Assembly (NCBI GenBank): GCA_031973435.1
Contig: DALYDA010000003.1
Span: 1 to 48,821 of the forward strand
Origin: Minisyncoccota bacterium
GTDB taxonomy: Bacteria; Patescibacteriota; Minisyncoccia; Phycocordibacterales; UBA9973
Direction of reading: 5' to 3'
DNA: 48,821 nucleotides
Part shown: piece by piece, positions 7,549-20,011 of the stretch
Layout: each line of letters starts with the position of its first letter
Position numbering within the stretch: the stretch's first letter is position 1
The notes under the pieces: generated by a model
What the model saw: the letters and a program-made list of their open reading frames with translations, nothing else
What the model was told of the DNA's origin: nothing
Databases searched by the model: none
Position numbers and translations under genes: made by a program

Positions 7549-7893
7549 CAATATTTTTTTGACAGTGCATCTATTGCATCAAATTCAATAATCAAAAGTT
7601 TTATTTTCTCTTTGAGTTTCATTTCAATGCATACTTGCAGAGGTCCAGACATTAGAAGTATTTTTGAATTTACTTTTATCTCCAACAATATTTCTTTTTT
7701 TTCTTTTTTCTGTTGGACTTTCTGAATTTATCACAGATTGCTGATCTTGTTTTTTGGCGGTATCAGTCAAATTATTTTCTTCTTTCATTGATCAATTTTG
7801 TTTGCATATATTTTATTTTAAAGTTGACTATATGTCAAAAAAACCTTGCTTTTAAAAGGCTTTTTTGGCTAAGTCAACAAGATCAAAATCTGT

Positions 7894-15712: not shown

Positions 15713-15921
15713 CCTTTTTATAAATAAGATAGCTCTTGCTATTCTATTTGTAAAACAAGTTAGGGTGATAGGAGGGATTTGAACCGCTGGCCGCAGTCCC
15801 ATCACTATGGGACGAAGGTTTCGAGTCGTAGCAACGACGAGAGGCAAATCCCATCTCTGGTTTTCAGTAATTCAAATTAGACTAACAGACTCTGATTATG
15901 ATAGAGTCCATGGGTAAGTAG

Positions 15922-16008
15922 GGAGGCGTGGATGAGTGGTTTAAATCAACAGTTTACTAAACTGTCGTCCCGTTAAAAGGACCGTGAGTTCGAATCTCAC
16001 CGCCTCCG
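15922..16008 (+). tRNA. tRNA-Ser-like type II tRNA; anticodon reads ACT as I fold it
   Basis: Acceptor GGAGGCG/CGCCTCC, D-stem GAT/ATC, anticodon stem ACAGT/ACTGT with loop TTACTAA (anticodon at 15956-15958), 18-nt variable arm, T-arm GTGAG-TTCGAAT-CTCAC, discriminator G. Confidence 0.8.
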
Positions 16009-17502
16009 CATTAAAACGAAATCAGAATCCCCGCGAAAAAATGCATCGGCGCGAAGCGCCGATGTGTGGGCTGAATCCCCGCCAAACCCAATCCCCGCCA
16101 AGATTTTCCACGCTCCGCGTGGCTCAAAAAGTACGGTTCGATCCTTAATTTGAAAGTTCGAACCGACTTTTTTAAGTAAACGGATTTTTTCTCCGTTTAC
16201 TTCATCGTTTGCCAATTCCATATTGAATTTCAAAAACTTTTCGGTAAGTTCGAACCGATTATTCGCTTTTTGCTCAAAAGCAGATAATTTCTCTTTGAGA
16301 AGCTGTTTAGAGCTAACCAACGCACTTTTAGTCTCTCGATATTCTTCCAGTGAAAGTGCGCTTTCAAGATAGAGTGTCATCAGCCTCTCGATCTTGGAAT
16401 CCAAAAGAGAAATTTCGGCTTTTGTGTTATCCGCAAAAAGCGTAGACGATTGTATTTCGGATGATTGATCTTTTCTGTTTTCTTCAATCATCCATTTTAT
16501 CCAATCGTCTGGCAAAGAAACTTTTTTGATTTCCTTTTGAATTTGAGAAGTGATGATTTCTTCACGGACATATTTTTGATCACAAGGATTTTTCCTTTTC
16601 GTACACCGCAAATAGTTATGACCTTTTTGTGTTTCAATAGTGATAAAGCAACCGCAGACACAATGGAAAAATCCGCGATATAAATATGGCTTCAAAACTT
16701 TGGAATGTGGTTTAGACTTTCTCATCATCACTTCTTGAACGGAATCAAAAAGTTTCTTTGTAATAATCGGTTCGTGTTTACCTTCGTGTATTTCACCGTT
16801 ATACCTCATTAGCCCTGTGTAAATCGGATTTTTCAAAAGTTTTTGATAATTCGACACCGCAAGTGCTCCATCGCTTTTTCCTTTCAAACCTAGCTCATTA
16901 AATTTGTCGCGGACTTGGCGCAAAGTGAAGTTTCCAGTTGCATATGCCTCAAATGTTTTTCGCACAAGCGGAGCAAATTCGGGATGTGGAGTAATTCCGC
17001 CATTTTTTATATTCATATATCCAAGCGGAGCCATTTGAGGCCATATTCCATTCTTCACTTTGTTTCGATGTCCGCGCTTGATATTTTCCGACAAGTTATC
17101 AACATAATATTTTGATTGAGAAAAAGCGATTGAGAGCATGAATTTTCCTTGCGGTGTCGGATCACACCAGAAAGTTGGAAATTTTAAATCAGTTATCTTG
17201 CCCGTATCGAGCAAATATATTATTTTTCCACCATCAACACTATTTCTCGCTAGTCTGTCTGGATGCCACGCTAAAATTCCATTTGCCTCATTTGCTTCGA
17301 TACGGAGAAGCATTTCATTAAATACTGGCCGACCCGGAACTTTAGCCGTCTGCTTTTCCACAAATACATCTACAACCTCAATATCCTCTTTTAACGCTAA
17401 AGTTTTTAACTCGGCCAGTTGATCCGAAATGCTTCTAACCTGCCGATCTTCACTATCGGTAGATTTGCGAGTATAAATGAAAAATTTTCTGGTGTGATTC
17501 AT
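15997..17502 (-). CDS. large serine recombinase
   Basis: Resolvase catalytic domain (IYTRKSTDSEDRQVRSISDQ, DRLARN), recombinase domain, Zn-ribbon CVCGC...CTKRKNPC and a coiled-coil. The last ~41 codons lie in IR-A and the stop codon lies inside the tRNA T-arm. Confidence 0.9.
   Translation of the reverse strand: MNHTRKFFIYTRKSTDSEDRQVRSISDQLAELKTLALKEDIEVVDVFVEKQTAKVPGRPVFNEMLLRIEANEANGILAWHPDRLARNSVDGGKIIYLLDTGKITDLKFPTFWCDPTPQGKFMLSIAFSQSKYYVDNLSENIKRGHRNKVKNGIWPQMAPLGYMNIKNGGITPHPEFAPLVRKTFEAYATGNFTLRQVRDKFNELGLKGKSDGALAVSNYQKLLKNPIYTGLMRYNGEIHEGKHEPIITKKLFDSVQEVMMRKSKPHSKVLKPYLYRGFFHCVCGCFITIETQKGHNYLRCTKRKNPCDQKYVREEIITSQIQKEIKKVSLPDDWIKWMIEENRKDQSSEIQSSTLFADNTKAEISLLDSKIERLMTLYLESALSLEEYRETKSALVSSKQLLKEKLSAFEQKANNRFELTEKFLKFNMELANDEVNGEKIRLLKKVGSNFQIKDRTVLFEPRGAWKILAGIGFGGDSAHTSALRADAFFRGDSDFVLMRRR
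16006..16125. repeat. IR-A left copy (120 bp)
   Basis: Exact reverse complement of 17524..17643, checked base by base. Overlaps the last 3 nt of the tRNA. Confidence 0.95.
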
Positions 17503-17523: not shown

Positions 17524-17643
17524 GAGCCACGCGGAGCGTGGAAAATCTTGGCGGGGATTGGGTTTGGCGGGGATTCAGCCCACACATCGGCGCTTCGCGC
17601 CGATGCATTTTTTCGCGGGGATTCTGATTTCGTTTTAATGCGG
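17524..17643. repeat. IR-A right copy (120 bp)
   Basis: Exact reverse complement of 16006..16125. Contains three direct GCGGGGATT 9-mers and the hairpin CATCGGCGC-TTC-GCGCCGATG. Confidence 0.95.
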
Positions 17644-17847
17644 TGCATATTAGACAAAGTTCGAATGTATTTTGCTGATAATCCTAACGAAGAAATCTAA
17701 AAATGGACTCGGCAGGGCGAAACAATTTTCTGGGGATATGGATTCGCCCTGCCTCGGCTAATGTCTTTTCCCGCCCGCAGGAGGGGTCTGGGGAGGAATG
17801 CGGACGGGATTCGCTCCAGCATTTCTTTGCGGAATTCGGGGCGGACA
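17639..17847. repeat. IR-B left copy (209 bp)
   Basis: Exact reverse complement of 19771..19979. Overlaps IR-A right by the 5-nt TGCGG core. Confidence 0.95.
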
Positions 17848-17850
17848 TGC

Positions 17851-17876
17851 CCATATTGAATTATAATTCAATATGG
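17851..17876. promoter_or_regulatory. 26-bp perfect palindrome centred on TATAAT; candidate operator and bidirectional -10
   Basis: CCATATTGAATT-AT-AATTCAATATGG. TATAAT (17862-17867) reads the same on both strands. Lies ~30 nt upstream of the XRE gene. Confidence 0.5.
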
Positions 17877-17902: not shown

Positions 17903-18112
17903 GTGGATATGTCAATTGTAAAGAAACTTGGCGAGAACATTAAGAAAATAAGGACAAAAAAGGAAATGACCCAAGGCGATGTCTGCCGAGCGCTTAAAAT
18001 GGATAGAGGATATATGAGTGCCATTGAAAATGGCAAGAAAAATATAACTCTTTTACAGCTTGAGAAAATAGCAAAAGCACTTGGGGAAAATCCCGATAGA
18101 TTGTTGAAATGA
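17903..18112 (+). CDS. XRE-family helix-turn-helix transcriptional regulator
   Basis: MTQGDVCRALKMDRGYMSAIENGKKNITLLQLEKIAKAL is a typical HTH_3 (XRE) domain. Start is GTG at 17903 or ATG at 17909. Confidence 0.85.
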   Translation: MDMSIVKKLGENIKKIRTKKEMTQGDVCRALKMDRGYMSAIENGKKNITLLQLEKIAKALGENPDRLLK

Positions 18113-18315
18113 GTTGTGTTATAATTCAAACATATATGACAGAAGAAGAAAGAGCTATAAAAATTGAAGAAGTGTACAACGATGCGAAACAAAAACTTGA
18201 GGAACTTGGCAATAAACGCCACGGCATTGTTAAAGATTACATTAAAGAGTTAGAGGCTCAAAAAGTAGATGCTATTCGGGCATCTCTTGGATTATCAAAT
18301 AATAGTCAAAAATAA
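18109..18315 (+). CDS. small charged, coiled-coil-like hypothetical protein (68 aa)
   Basis: ATGA overlap with the XRE stop codon suggests translational coupling. Helical, charged sequence. Confidence 0.5.
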   Translation: MSCVIIQTYMTEEERAIKIEEVYNDAKQKLEELGNKRHGIVKDYIKELEAQKVDAIRASLGLSNNSQK

Positions 18316-18319
18316 ATTT

Positions 18320-19228
18320 ATGGGAATAGAAGATATGGCAAACGCAAAAGCTATCGAATCCATGGAAAAGAACAATGATGTTGCTGGTCTTGAAGCGTTT
18401 AAGTTGGGGGAATCTCCTGATTCTAATGTTGCTAAATGGGCAGAAAATGCATTGAAGCGCATTAGGGAACAAGCTGAAAATAGCTCGGCTACACCTGAAT
18501 ATCAGACAACATCAATTGAAAAATATGGTGGCTCAAATGAGGAAATTCAAAAAAGAACGGAAGGAGTGGATAGTGAGATAGAATTAGTTAAAACTGAAAC
18601 AGAAGATAAACTTAAAAGGATAAATGAGGAAAATATTGAAGATGTTCCTTATGAGGAAGTAAAAGATACAGAAAAAAATTTAAGTAATTTAGAAAAGCCA
18701 GCCGAGAAAATAGAAGGTGAAAAAACTGAAATCAAAGAAGAAACAATAAAATCTTCCGAAATTACAAAGGAGAAACCCTTACAACCAGGTGATGAAATTT
18801 TCAAAGATGGAAAATTCTTTAAAATAACTGATATTAGCGTTCCATCGCCTGAAGAGAAAGAATTTAAGTGGGGAGCAGAAAAACCTAATAGAGACAGAGA
18901 ATTCAGCGAAATGTCGAAGCTATCATTTGACATGGATCTTTTGGAAGAAAGAAAAAAATTCGATGAACAGAAAAAACAAGAATTTGAAAAACGAAATGGG
19001 CAAAAAATAAGTGCGATAATTAAAGGTGGCAAGGGTACGATTGCACAAGAAACAATTGAACTTGATCCAGAAAATGTTATAAGAATTGATAACGCTGAAC
19101 AAAGAGAAAAAATTGTACAAATGCAAAAAGAAATGGAAGAAACTGAAAACAGAGCAGCAAATTTCGCTGGTCTGGGAAAGGAAAAAAAGTTGGTAGACAA
19201 AATAATAGGGCATCCAGGGAAATTCTAA
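18320..19228 (+). CDS. highly charged (E/K-rich) hypothetical protein, 302 aa
   Basis: In-frame ATG at 18320 (MGIEDMANAK), 5 nt after the upstream stop. The ORF-track start at 18269 would overlap the upstream gene. Low-complexity acidic/lysine-rich sequence. Confidence 0.6.
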   Translation: MGIEDMANAKAIESMEKNNDVAGLEAFKLGESPDSNVAKWAENALKRIREQAENSSATPEYQTTSIEKYGGSNEEIQKRTEGVDSEIELVKTETEDKLKRINEENIEDVPYEEVKDTEKNLSNLEKPAEKIEGEKTEIKEETIKSSEITKEKPLQPGDEIFKDGKFFKITDISVPSPEEKEFKWGAEKPNRDREFSEMSKLSFDMDLLEERKKFDEQKKQEFEKRNGQKISAIIKGGKGTIAQETIELDPENVIRIDNAEQREKIVQMQKEMEETENRAANFAGLGKEKKLVDKIIGHPGKF

Positions 19229-19320
19229 CTACTGGAACTAGTGGGAGCAAAATTCATGCGCGCATGGGTGGGTAAAGTGTCCGCGTGTACTCACGCGGAC
19301 ACAGGGGCAAGCATGAATAT

Positions 19321-19346
19321 TCCGCCTCAGGCATTTCCGCTAGGGC
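19321..19346. repeat. 26-bp inverted repeat, left arm
   Basis: TCCGCCTCAGGCATTTCCGCTAGGGC is the exact reverse complement of 19661..19686. Confidence 0.9.
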
Positions 19347-19660
19347 GTCCATGACTAAAGGATGAGCGCCGCCGTAATAAGCAAAATAAAACTCTAAAAT
19401 AAAAATAAACTCGGATATGAAAACGAGGAGAGGGGTTGTGCGAGGGCGGACTCCGAAGGCACTCTCAACGAAGCCACAAAGCGTAACATAAAGATAAAAG
19501 TAATAAAGCACTGAATACTCAAACTAACATCTGCGAGGAGGAGACCGAAGCTGGGGAGAGGATTCCTTCCTCTCCCCAAACAGCTGTCCTGCCCGAGCAC
19601 GCGCTCGCAAGCGCGGAATGCGAGGAGAAAGCAGGACACCTAGTAATCTAGGCGCGAGTA

Positions 19661-19686
19661 GCCCTAGCGGAAATGCCTGAGGCGGA
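19661..19686. repeat. 26-bp inverted repeat, right arm
   Basis: GCCCTAGCGGAAATGCCTGAGGCGGA is the exact reverse complement of 19321..19346. The arms are 314 bp apart. Confidence 0.9.
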
Positions 19687-19770
19687 TGCCGAATGGTGGA
19701 TCTCTTTAGACTTGGACGATCAAAATGGTAGAATGACTGAGACAATATTGAATTTGTATTTTCTGTTTTT

Positions 19771-19979
19771 TGTCCGCCCCGAATTCCGCAAAGAAATGCT
19801 GGAGCGAATCCCGTCCGCATTCCTCCCCAGACCCCTCCTGCGGGCGGGAAAAGACATTAGCCGAGGCAGGGCGAATCCATATCCCCAGAAAATTGTTTCG
19901 CCCTGCCGAGTCCATTTTTAGATTTCTTCGTTAGGATTATCAGCAAAATACATTCGAACTTTGTCTAATATGCACCGCA
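19771..19979. repeat. IR-B right copy (209 bp)
   Basis: Exact reverse complement of 17639..17847. Ends with CCGCA. Confidence 0.95.
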
Positions 19980-20011
19980 GAAAATAATAGTATCGGTATG
20001 ACCATATAAAA

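Follow-up and report, generated by a model that had tools for sequence, protein, structure and literature searches.

A predicted family of large structured RNAs beside the attachment site of serine-recombinase elements in Patescibacteria

What is encoded in a stretch of some 540 nucleotides that lies inside a mobile element, is rich in G+C and self-complementary helices, and holds no credible reading frame? The stretch in question (hereafter the block) spans positions 19229–19770 of a 48,821-nt sequence, positions 1–48,821 of contig DALYDA010000003.1 from the Minisyncoccota bacterium assembly GCA_031973435.1; this whole sequence is referred to below as the window. The block is situated between the stop codon of a 319-aa open reading frame (ORF; 18269–19228) and a 214-nt inverted repeat, within an element of 4 kb whose insertion site is the 3′ end of a tRNA-Ser gene. 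An original prediction, made from the sequence alone, had suggested that it might be either a large ornate RNA or a DNA architectural or replication module associated with a serine recombinase. Our comparative analysis predicts that the block encodes a multi-domain folded non-coding RNA of about 470 nt, belonging to a family outside Rfam (Table 1).

The block and its homologues

The compositional and structural features that had set the block apart were borne out. Its G+C content is 0.491, compared with 0.342 for the cargo ORFs of the element and 0.383 for the whole window, and reaches 0.517 for positions 19243–19712. Folding of the + strand gave a minimum free energy of −200.9 kcal/mol, against −155.2 ± 7.2 kcal/mol for dinucleotide shuffles (z = −6.3); for the minus strand, the corresponding z value was −7.5. 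All of the proposed helices could be located: ATTCATGC (19252–19259) paired with GCATGAAT (19311–19318), the hairpin GTGTCCGCG-TGTACTCA-CGCGGACAC (19277–19302), GGGGAGAGGA-TTCCT-TCCTCTCCCC (19553–19577), GTCCTGC (19586–19592) paired with GCAGGAC (19631–19637), CCTAG-TAAT-CTAGG (19639–19652), and a 26-nt perfect long-range complement (19321–19346 with 19661–19686), which occurs once in the window where 0 chance matches are expected. Both A-rich islands, at 19381–19420 and 19480–19530, were likewise present. The claim that the block lacks a credible ORF also held: mechanical ORFs of 81–98 aa overlap it, and the one overlapping ORF that was tested, an 82-aa + strand frame at 19673–19921, has no Pfam match. 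The sole frame start inside a conserved stretch is an ATG in the second arm of the 26-nt complement, which runs into a stop in fewer than 20 codons in 58 of 87 copies and reads ATT in 20 homologues. With neither a conserved ORF nor a Pfam domain for the 82-aa frame, a protein-coding gene or pseudogene was rejected.

Of 80 genome-derived recombinase loci searched by BLAST, just three (L012, L033 and L073) proved to contain the block, and compensatory changes were already visible by eye among these. A 24-nt pattern taken from the most conserved stretch, scanned over metagenomes, matched at least 120 contigs, and an nhmmer profile search of the 120 listed pattern contigs confirmed 109 of them while rejecting 11 as chance matches. 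The family therefore comprises at least 112 homologues besides the window copy (109 from metagenomes, together with the three genome loci); the profile match on the window copy itself covers 19243–19762. Seventy full-length, non-identical copies, 410–575 nt long and with a median pairwise identity of 65%, were aligned (alignment A1); more than 110 copies at this level of identity are enough for structure inference.

Analysis of this alignment using RNAalifold yielded 53 consensus pairs in 11 helices. Standard pairs occupy 96.9% of the cells across the 70 sequences, as compared with 39–48% in slid controls, in which the 3′ partners were moved by 1–3 columns. Changes on both sides were found at 21 pairs (5–12 in the slid controls) and in 208 cells (28–47), and in a second control none of 500 column shuffles equalled the observed value on any of five measures. 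Covariation among homologous blocks, which the original prediction had named as a check, thus exceeds both the shuffled and the slid controls; it is strongest in the 5′ hairpin, the GCGCC/GGCGC helix and the base of the variable hairpin. An all-against-all search of column pairs for extra helices on the same alignment returned an output dominated by G-rich columns. In addition, the 3,625 cells with letters on both sides contain 294 G.U pairs versus 20 A.C pairs, an asymmetry that identifies the + strand as the functional strand and rules out a purely double-stranded-DNA reading. The conserved region also reaches about 80 nt 5′ and 25–100 nt 3′ beyond the 26-bp repeat.

These data bear directly on the alternative of a double-stranded-DNA feature, such as a recombination enhancer, an architectural region or a miniature inverted-repeat transposable element (MITE) bounded by the 26-bp repeat. 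The inverted repeat is nearly invariant, as protein recognition of DNA could explain; however, both conservation and covariation extend well outside it (into the 5′ module, helix 5 and helix 9), wobble strand asymmetry is meaningless for duplex DNA, the RNA is optional for recombination, and there is a single window copy, always at the same position in the element. We regard this explanation as largely refuted and hence extremely improbable. A MITE or nested transposon was also rejected as a candidate in its own right, given one copy in the window, conservation beyond the repeat and a fixed genomic position.

The two halves of the original suggestion thus fared differently. The large ornate RNA gains support from the number of homologues, covariation above that of the controls, the strand bias, a GNRA hairpin and a multi-domain architecture, although the folded RNA is smaller than the block, since its folded, covarying part stops near 19712 and the last 60 nt or so form a separate tail. 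The DNA architectural or replication module loses its double-stranded version to the G.U excess, while a role as single-stranded DNA may remain. Judging by these sequence comparisons, positions ~19243–19712 are very probably the gene of a new, + strand family of structured RNAs.

The statement that the block could not be assigned to any class also stands. Rfam 15, whose families include GOLLD, ROOL, HEARO, OLE, raiA, group I/II introns, RNase P, tmRNA and 6S, returned only the two tRNAs from the whole window at the gathering threshold, five sub-threshold chance matches from the block at E ≤ 10, and nothing on the RNA in eight homologue loci at E ≤ 0.5. Literature searches using conserved sequence strings, or for structured RNAs or serine-recombinase elements in Patescibacteria, retrieved nothing on this RNA or element family. 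BLAST against phage records found no homologue of the block. In IMG/VR, the 24-nt pattern gave 0 matches, a hairpin-only pattern 31 (all chance hairpins), a 17-mer 113 (high-GC phage coding sequence, WTDEADAEG...) and a 16-mer 11 (at chance level), with 0 true homologues according to nhmmer run over these pattern matches.

The predicted fold and the window copy

In the predicted fold, AGGGAG opens a 5′ module that also contains helix P1, a hairpin with a G-UA(A/C)U-C cap and a G-rich loop. A central domain of 250–320 nt is enclosed by a 26-bp helix together with the 5–9-bp helix on which it is stacked; this domain is predicted to hold the GNRA hairpin, the GGGGAGAGGA/UCCUCUCCCC hairpin and a variable hairpin, supplemented in many members by a second G-UA(A/C)U-C-capped hairpin. 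The onset of conservation at AGGGAG is abrupt across 67 distinct upstream sequences. Within the 5′ module, the G-rich internal loop reads GGGUGGGU ... GGGGCAAGC and the hairpin at 19277–19302 carries the loop UGUACUCA on a covarying stem (helices 1–3). Across the family the 26-bp helix is 99.4% paired, with four compensatory pair positions and with U.G wobbles only on the 5′-arm strand; it is near-invariant in sequence, and its few changes are compensated (C-G to A-U in 12, G-C to U-A in 13). Helix 5 (GCGCC/GGCGC) is 99.7% paired, and at one of its pairs C-G is found in 51 sequences and U-A in 17. All six pairs of helix 9 show compensatory changes, one position being C-G in 33, U-A in 23 and G-C in 2. 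The GNRA hairpin, AGCGAAAGCGAC, is present in 69 of 70 aligned members. The A-rich island at 19480–19530 corresponds to an A/C-rich insertion common to one subfamily (for example L204).

Hairpins with GUA(N)UC loops are 70 times as frequent inside the RNA (1.67 per kb) as outside it (0.024 per kb). Inside the RNA they occupy two fixed positions, and they recur some 125–145 nt 3′ of the RNA in five loci. In L174, L140, L158, L202 and L178, a strong GC hairpin whose GUACUC or GUAAUC cap matches those of the RNA itself is found about 123–146 nt after the RNA. A separate observation concerns four near-invariant G-tracts (AGGGAG, GGG, GGG and GGGG) in the 5′ module (19243–19310; alignment columns 12–135). 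These could form an RNA G-quadruplex with hairpin-bearing loops or, alternatively, might form a pseudoknot by pairing with the conserved CCCGACCC in the central domain.

The window copy deviates from the consensus more than any other of the 70 aligned members, doing so at 11 of 118 conserved columns (the median is 1 and the next-highest count 6). Seven of the 11 deviations fall in the A-rich stretch at 19381–19420, where the GNRA hairpin has been lost; furthermore, AUG takes the place of the GGG strand in the 3′ hairpin. It is thus conceivable, if doubtful, that the family is real and this particular copy a decaying, non-functional relic, an account compatible with the other explanations considered here. 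Against decay, all major helices are intact and the 11 changes include one compensated pair (G-C to A-U at columns 215/644); the profile gives this copy 288.9 bits, inside the family range, and the whole element looks recent, its inverted repeats being 100% and 99% identical.

Table 1. Positions in the window of the predicted RNA, its parts and the neighbouring features of the carrier element
Feature	Position	Strand	Evidence or remarks
Predicted structured non-coding RNA, founding window copy of the family	19243–19712	+	nhmmer family profile, 288.9 bits, E = 1.5e-86
5′ module	19243–19320	+	(A)GGGAG start, helix P1, G-rich internal loop, hairpin
Helix P1	19252–19259 with 19311–19318	+	Within the 5′ module
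5′ arm of the 26-bp long-range closing helix	19321–19346	+	Perfect complement of 19661–19686
GCGCC strand of helix 5, stacked on the long helix	19366–19370	+	Pairs with GGCGC, 19651–19655
A-rich stretch in place of the family GNRA hairpin AGCGAAAGCGAC	19381–19420	+	Lesion or variant specific to the window copy
A/C-rich, G-poor insertion, apparently unpaired	19463–19535	+	Alignment A1; common to the GC-rich subfamily (L204, L156, L202, others)
Near-invariant hairpin GGGGAGAGGA-loop-UCCUCUCCCC	19553–19577	+	Helices 7–8; in 70 of 70 aligned members
Variable hairpin domain, basal stem GUCCUGC/GCAGGAC	19586–19637	+	Helix 9
3′ arm of the 26-bp long-range closing helix	19661–19686	+	Followed by invariant GAUGCCGA
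3′ tail, probably outside the folded RNA	19705–19770	+	Promoter scan, sequence reading
Attachment site (attL side): 3′ end of tRNA-Ser, anticodon ACT	15922–16009	+	Rfam/tRNA identification
Large serine recombinase gene, 501 aa	15997–17502	−	Pfam Resolvase, Recombinase, Zn_ribbon_recom
Internal, intact attP-like copy (P arm, CCGCA core, P′ arm), inverted	17524–17847	−	Between the recombinase gene and the cargo
Cargo operon 5′ of the RNA	17903–19228	+	Three ORFs
XRE-type helix-turn-helix gene	17903–18112	+	Pfam HTH_3
68-aa ORF	18109–18315	+	No Pfam or PADLOC match
319-aa K/E-rich ORF	18269–19228	+	No Pfam or PADLOC match
IR-B′, P arm of attR	19771–19979	+	214-nt inverted repeat, 99% complementary to 17634–17847

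The carrier element, its cargo and the optional RNA

The element is an integrative element of the large serine recombinase (LSR) type, as shown by the domains of its recombinase, the CCGCA core at both of its ends and its location at a tRNA 3′ end. Its ends are a P′ arm (attL, after the tRNA ...CTCCGCA) and a P arm (attR, ...CACCGCA), the latter forming part of the repeat IR-B′, which holds a hairpin (19865–19907) followed by a T-run, with the core CCGCA at 19975–19979. Two pairs of inverted repeats are present, IR-A (16006–16125 with 17524–17643, 100% identical) flanking the recombinase gene and IR-B (17634–17847 with 19771–19984, 214 nt, 99%) flanking the cargo. The element departs from the rule of a single attP in having a second, intact and inverted attP-like copy inside, contiguous on the minus strand at 17847–17524. 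To our knowledge, LSR elements are not usually described with two attP-like sequences. This double-attP repeat architecture occurs in at least 12 other genomes, with differing cargo; we also noted it in L003, L006, L016, L020, L025, L035, L054, L058, L066 and L069.

When the element ends are joined at the CCGCA core they reproduce the internal 324-nt copy exactly, the second copy being inverted. This agrees with the original proposal that an excised circle would hold one contiguous GC-rich non-coding region, and two loci (L213 and L215) show just such an order, with RNA, P arm, P′ arm and recombinase 3′ end contiguous and no tRNA. An excised circle would be comparable to the yeast 2-micron plasmid, having two unique segments between 324-bp inverted repeats. 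A cargo-flipped isomer was found in L230, where the RNA and both arms are followed by a co-oriented recombinase gene. The recombinase lies downstream on the same strand in seven contigs (L230 and six others) and is convergent in L213 and L215. Both cargo orientations thus occur in nature, implying that the repeat-flanked segments invert, by a route that may involve RecA or the recombinase.

Evidence for mobility comes from another Paceibacteria genome (L001), which carries a copy of the element that is 94.75% similar; the similarity ends at the att core (window position 16004), and the neighbouring tRNA is tRNA-Ser(GCT). Other copies are found at tRNA-Ser(TGA) or tRNA-Ser(GGA). A near-identical copy that stops at the att core, taken together with these sites, indicates that the element is mobile and specific for tRNA-Ser. 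RNA-bearing elements more widely are located at tRNA-Ser or tRNA-Thr genes, or near tRNA-Asn and tRNA-Glu genes, and encode recombinases that are about 80% or just 35–39% identical to that of the window. An exact look-up of the window recombinase found no record; relatives at ~80% identity number in the thousands, all of them in metagenome-assembled genomes annotated as Patescibacteria (Paceibacteria, Nomurabacteria, Minisyncoccia and others).

Whatever the element, all RNA-bearing loci have the RNA as their final feature ahead of the att arm, towards which it points. It ends 40–250 nt from the contig end in many loci, as would fit a repeat that breaks the assembly just after the RNA. Where the recombinase is visible upstream, it is 2–10 kb away and divergent (13 of 13), and an XRE-type helix-turn-helix (HTH) homologue lies 3–9 kb upstream on the strand of the RNA. 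The cargo in between varies: Shedu SduA with a peptidase in L073, a DRT2 reverse transcriptase and methyltransferases in L033, a type III restriction-modification system in L158, an ECF sigma factor in L174 and a MerR protein in L175. Given this fixed position and varying cargo, the RNA appears to be a module of the element backbone and not part of any one cargo system. As an observation on the elements themselves, their cargo consists mostly of defence or modification genes (L033, L073, L158, L174, L035, L016), and they behave like miniature defence islands; DRT2, Shedu, type III restriction-modification and N6 methyltransferases were confirmed by Pfam or PADLOC, and L035 adds a putative C5 methyltransferase, judged by the appearance of its sequence alone.

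In L033 the reverse transcriptase ends 2 nt before the RNA. A link to DRT2 was nevertheless rejected, as DRT2 has an RNA of its own on the upstream side of the reverse transcriptase gene (PMC9226505), and the window element has no reverse transcriptase; the adjacency seen in L033 is thus a coincidence of cargo. The adjacency to a reverse transcriptase that is obligate for DRT2 and retron RNAs was not found in the family at large, where only L033 has Drt2 nearby.

At least 10 sister elements with a recombinase of the window type lack the RNA, and in these the segment flanked by IR-B is entirely filled by an HTH gene and between one and three protein genes, with no non-coding block. The RNA is therefore dispensable for integration and recombination. 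No homology was detected between the 319-aa K/E-rich protein of the window and the ~390-aa proteins of these RNA-less sister elements. The longest matches between the RNA and attP or attB are 8–9 nt, no better than with shuffles, and there was no antisense enrichment of the RNA against att sites across 42 loci. With no att complementarity beyond chance, and with an LSR rather than a DEDD recombinase encoded beside the RNA, a bridge or guide RNA of the IS110 type was rejected. The association with serine recombinases is in this sense real, but looser than originally implied, the RNA being an optional module. The only downstream match to be repeated was GCGAGGGCGGAC with a GUACUC-capped hairpin (L174, L140, L202, L144 and L222); it is same-sense and looks like a partial duplicate of an RNA module in or next to the att arm, as opposed to a guide.

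L030, L017, L071 and L008 have, at the same att-proximal place, a different non-coding block some 340 nt long. Its resemblance to our family, seen in L030 (reverse strand, starting at 1258), L017 and L071, is confined to the 5′ module, which comprises AGGGAG, P1, the G-rich loop GUGGGCGGGUGGGGCAAGCAC and, optionally, a hairpin. This is probably another new RNA family, and the existence of two RNA types with a common head points to a wider group of att-proximal RNAs.

A winged-helix protein (HTH_24) precedes the RNA in 34 loci and mostly ends 0–22 nt before it. It has a disordered, Pro/Glu-rich N-terminus (L073, 451–1002 on the minus strand, and 33 metagenome loci) and a conserved C-terminus, ITNDEVEKFLHVSDATATRYLSQLEKEGKIKQxGKTGKxVSYSRI. 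We regard it as a candidate RNA partner, although not a universal one. Its presence goes together with that of the GAACGGCUCA hairpin (23 of 25 against 11 of 35), a correlation that may reflect phylogeny alone.

Several further observations concern the attL end of the element. The recombinase ORF crosses the P′ arm and the att core (15997–16125) and ends inside the tRNA gene, so that the C-terminus of the protein depends on the integration state; this fits the variable length (495–647 aa) of close relatives of the recombinase. Each P′ arm (16025–16086 and 17547–17624) contains three direct copies of GAATCCCCGC(C/G)AAA, and a similar (C)ATCCCCCCGCGAAAAAA is seen 3′ of the RNA in L174-type elements; the P′-arm repeats may be accessory protein-binding sites. 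The anticodon of the tRNA-Ser at the insertion site, ACT, is unusual for bacteria, and a tRNA-Ser(ACT), with A at position 34, was seen in three Patescibacteria genomes (the window, L038 at 7703–7790 and L040 at 7701–7788). Between the two tRNA-Ser genes of the window, a GC-rich opposite-strand stretch (15771–15860) opens with the exact reverse complement of the tRNA-Ser(GGA) T-arm (GGAGGGATTTGAACC), and may have arisen as a piece of a tRNA or as the scar of a former attachment, unless it is a minus-strand tRNA that escaped detection.

The 3′ tail, possible roles and known systems

Covariation stops after the small hairpins 3′ of the long helix, and no clear intrinsic terminator was found before the P-arm hairpin. 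The tail beyond contains a promoter-like site (19705–19734; TTTAGA-18 nt-TAGAAT, preceded by TG) and a conserved GAGACAAU (19739–19746). The sequence TANNNT is found exactly 4 nt before a conserved GAGAC in 31 of 70 homologues, where about 10 would be expected by chance, and 26 of these have TGn. In addition, ATATTGAATT (19745–19754) is a half-site of the palindrome ATATTGAATTATAATTCAATAT located before the HTH gene (17853–17874), and may represent an operator. Positions 19705–19770 therefore look like a separate, promoter- or operator-like control region acting at the level of DNA and facing the att arm. We note that the palindrome overlaps a promoter-like site of the XRE-HTH gene, and that TTGAATTT-type repeats are common in the tail across the family.

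A tail of this kind raises the possibility of a cis-acting, att-linked regulator. Transcription of the RNA, or from the end of its block, would cross attR/attP, and circularisation or cargo inversion would link the recombinase gene to the transcript, or to the long helix acting as a site of processing, by analogy with lambda sib retroregulation and with the junction promoters of insertion sequence (IS) circles. The RNA always lies immediately 5′ of the att arm and points into it, 31 of 70 members have the extended −10-like site 4 nt before GAGAC, the co-oriented (L230; seven contigs) and the convergent arrangement (L213, L215) both exist, and a 26-bp perfect duplex is a plausible substrate for RNase III. 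Nevertheless, a good −10 is missing from the tail in about 55% of members, and a 470-nt multi-domain fold with a GNRA and other conserved loops far exceeds what a switch needs. Moreover, the convergent recombinase transcript would carry the antisense strand, which the wobble counts (294 G.U versus 20 A.C) show is not the one maintained by selection, and sister elements manage without the RNA. We consider a regulator of this type unlikely.

The same orientation could also suit a replication module of the circle, in which the RNA would serve as a pre-primer, like ColE1 RNA II, for an origin in the AT-rich tail, or the block as a structured single-strand origin after uptake of single-stranded DNA. 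No replication-initiator domain was found in those ORFs of the element that were scanned against Pfam, the RNA of about 500 nt has G-rich 5′ segments and points at a tail that is AT-rich and holds TTGAATTT-type repeats, and Patescibacteria are thought to depend on DNA uptake. Yet elements with the same recombinase lack the RNA, no signature of an antisense regulator was found, and G.U pairs, a GNRA loop and features resembling tertiary motifs are typical of a folded functional RNA and not of a primer, making this a distinctly improbable role.

Taken together, the observations are best explained by an optional, position-fixed new RNA family that belongs to the backbone of LSR elements and may act as a scaffold, an explanation to which, as a whole, we assign a probability of roughly 0.6. 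The mechanism considered by itself, although the likeliest of those weighed here, we rate as less probable than not: the RNA may be a trans-acting, protein-binding scaffold, and thus part of a ribonucleoprotein. Its repeated, identical hairpin caps would be docking sites for protein, its tertiary fold would be held together by the GNRA and G-rich loops, and its purpose would be to maintain the element or to control the recombinase as opposed to catalysis of recombination.

Several points weigh against the scaffold explanation. A trans-acting RNA has no need of strict adjacency to the att arm, which hints at a role in cis, and the sequence of the 26-bp helix is conserved beyond what base pairing requires. 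No universal protein partner was found, since neither the window nor roughly two thirds of the loci have the winged-helix protein; this protein was also rejected as a reader of the GUA(N)UC caps, since its presence is uncorrelated with them. Upstream of AGGGAG the sequence is generic and AT-rich, with no conserved −35/−10 found, and the window copy, having lost its GNRA and 3′ hairpins, may be non-functional.

A bolder possibility, which strikes us as rather improbable, is that the RNA is a functional partner in the life cycle of serine-recombinase elements, be it as an RNA that sets directionality, equivalent to a recombination directionality factor, as a gate of cargo inversion between the attP copies, or as a new ribozyme or self-assembling RNA particle. 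Were this so, it would be the first such RNA for the serine recombinase superfamily; a ribozyme or particle would serve transfer of the element or the countering of host defence, and the presence of the 5′ module on two RNA bodies would reflect a common docking or processing signal.

How does the predicted RNA compare with known systems? Like DRT2 (UG2) and retron RNAs, it is a structured RNA in defence islands, and in L033 the DRT2 gene even ends 2 nt before it; DRT2 RNA, however, is 5′ of its reverse transcriptase, and the window and most other loci have no reverse transcriptase. ColE1 RNA II is also a structured RNA of about 500 nt, encoded on a small circle that lacks a Rep gene and pointing to an AT-rich region, but the likeness is one of size and orientation only; here the RNA is optional, and its conserved loops resembling tertiary motifs are not a feature of RNA II. 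Lambda sib likewise places an RNA stem across attP from the integrase, with a linkage that depends on integration state, and the long duplex would suit RNase III; sib, though, is a single hairpin on the integrase transcript, whereas the present fold spans 470 nt and, where the arrangement is convergent, the strand under selection is the one antisense to the recombinase. The bridge (seek) RNAs of IS110/IS1111 and the omega RNAs (HEARO) of IS605/IS607 are also structured RNAs at an element end beside a recombinase or nuclease gene. Those RNAs pair with target or donor DNA and have DEDD recombinases or TnpB/IscB as partners, whereas the present RNA accompanies an LSR, has no att complementarity beyond chance and is absent from elements that work without it.

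The comparison with ROOL and GOLLD is of another kind. The present family differs from these in giving no covariance-model match, in its Patescibacteria host, in its fixed position at the element end facing the att arm, and in residing on serine-recombinase elements of 4–12 kb instead of prophages, the viral collections searched being without a match. It shares with them a length of several hundred nucleotides, a multi-helix fold with conserved loops, a location on integrated mobile elements often near tRNA genes, an unknown function and independence from any one neighbouring protein gene. The RNA is in this respect a new family within a known kind, the large structured RNAs of mobile elements. 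Large, intricate bacterial RNAs of unknown function are rare, with OLE, GOLLD, ROOL, HEARO and raiA as the main examples; HEARO proved to be the guide RNA of IscB, and the others that were studied gave new biology or unexpected RNA architectures. To these the present family adds a member from a huge and barely cultured lineage, the Patescibacteria, with a sharply defined, att-proximal setting on small defence-carrying elements, and such a setting, on a minimal element of 4 kb, makes the function of the RNA directly testable.

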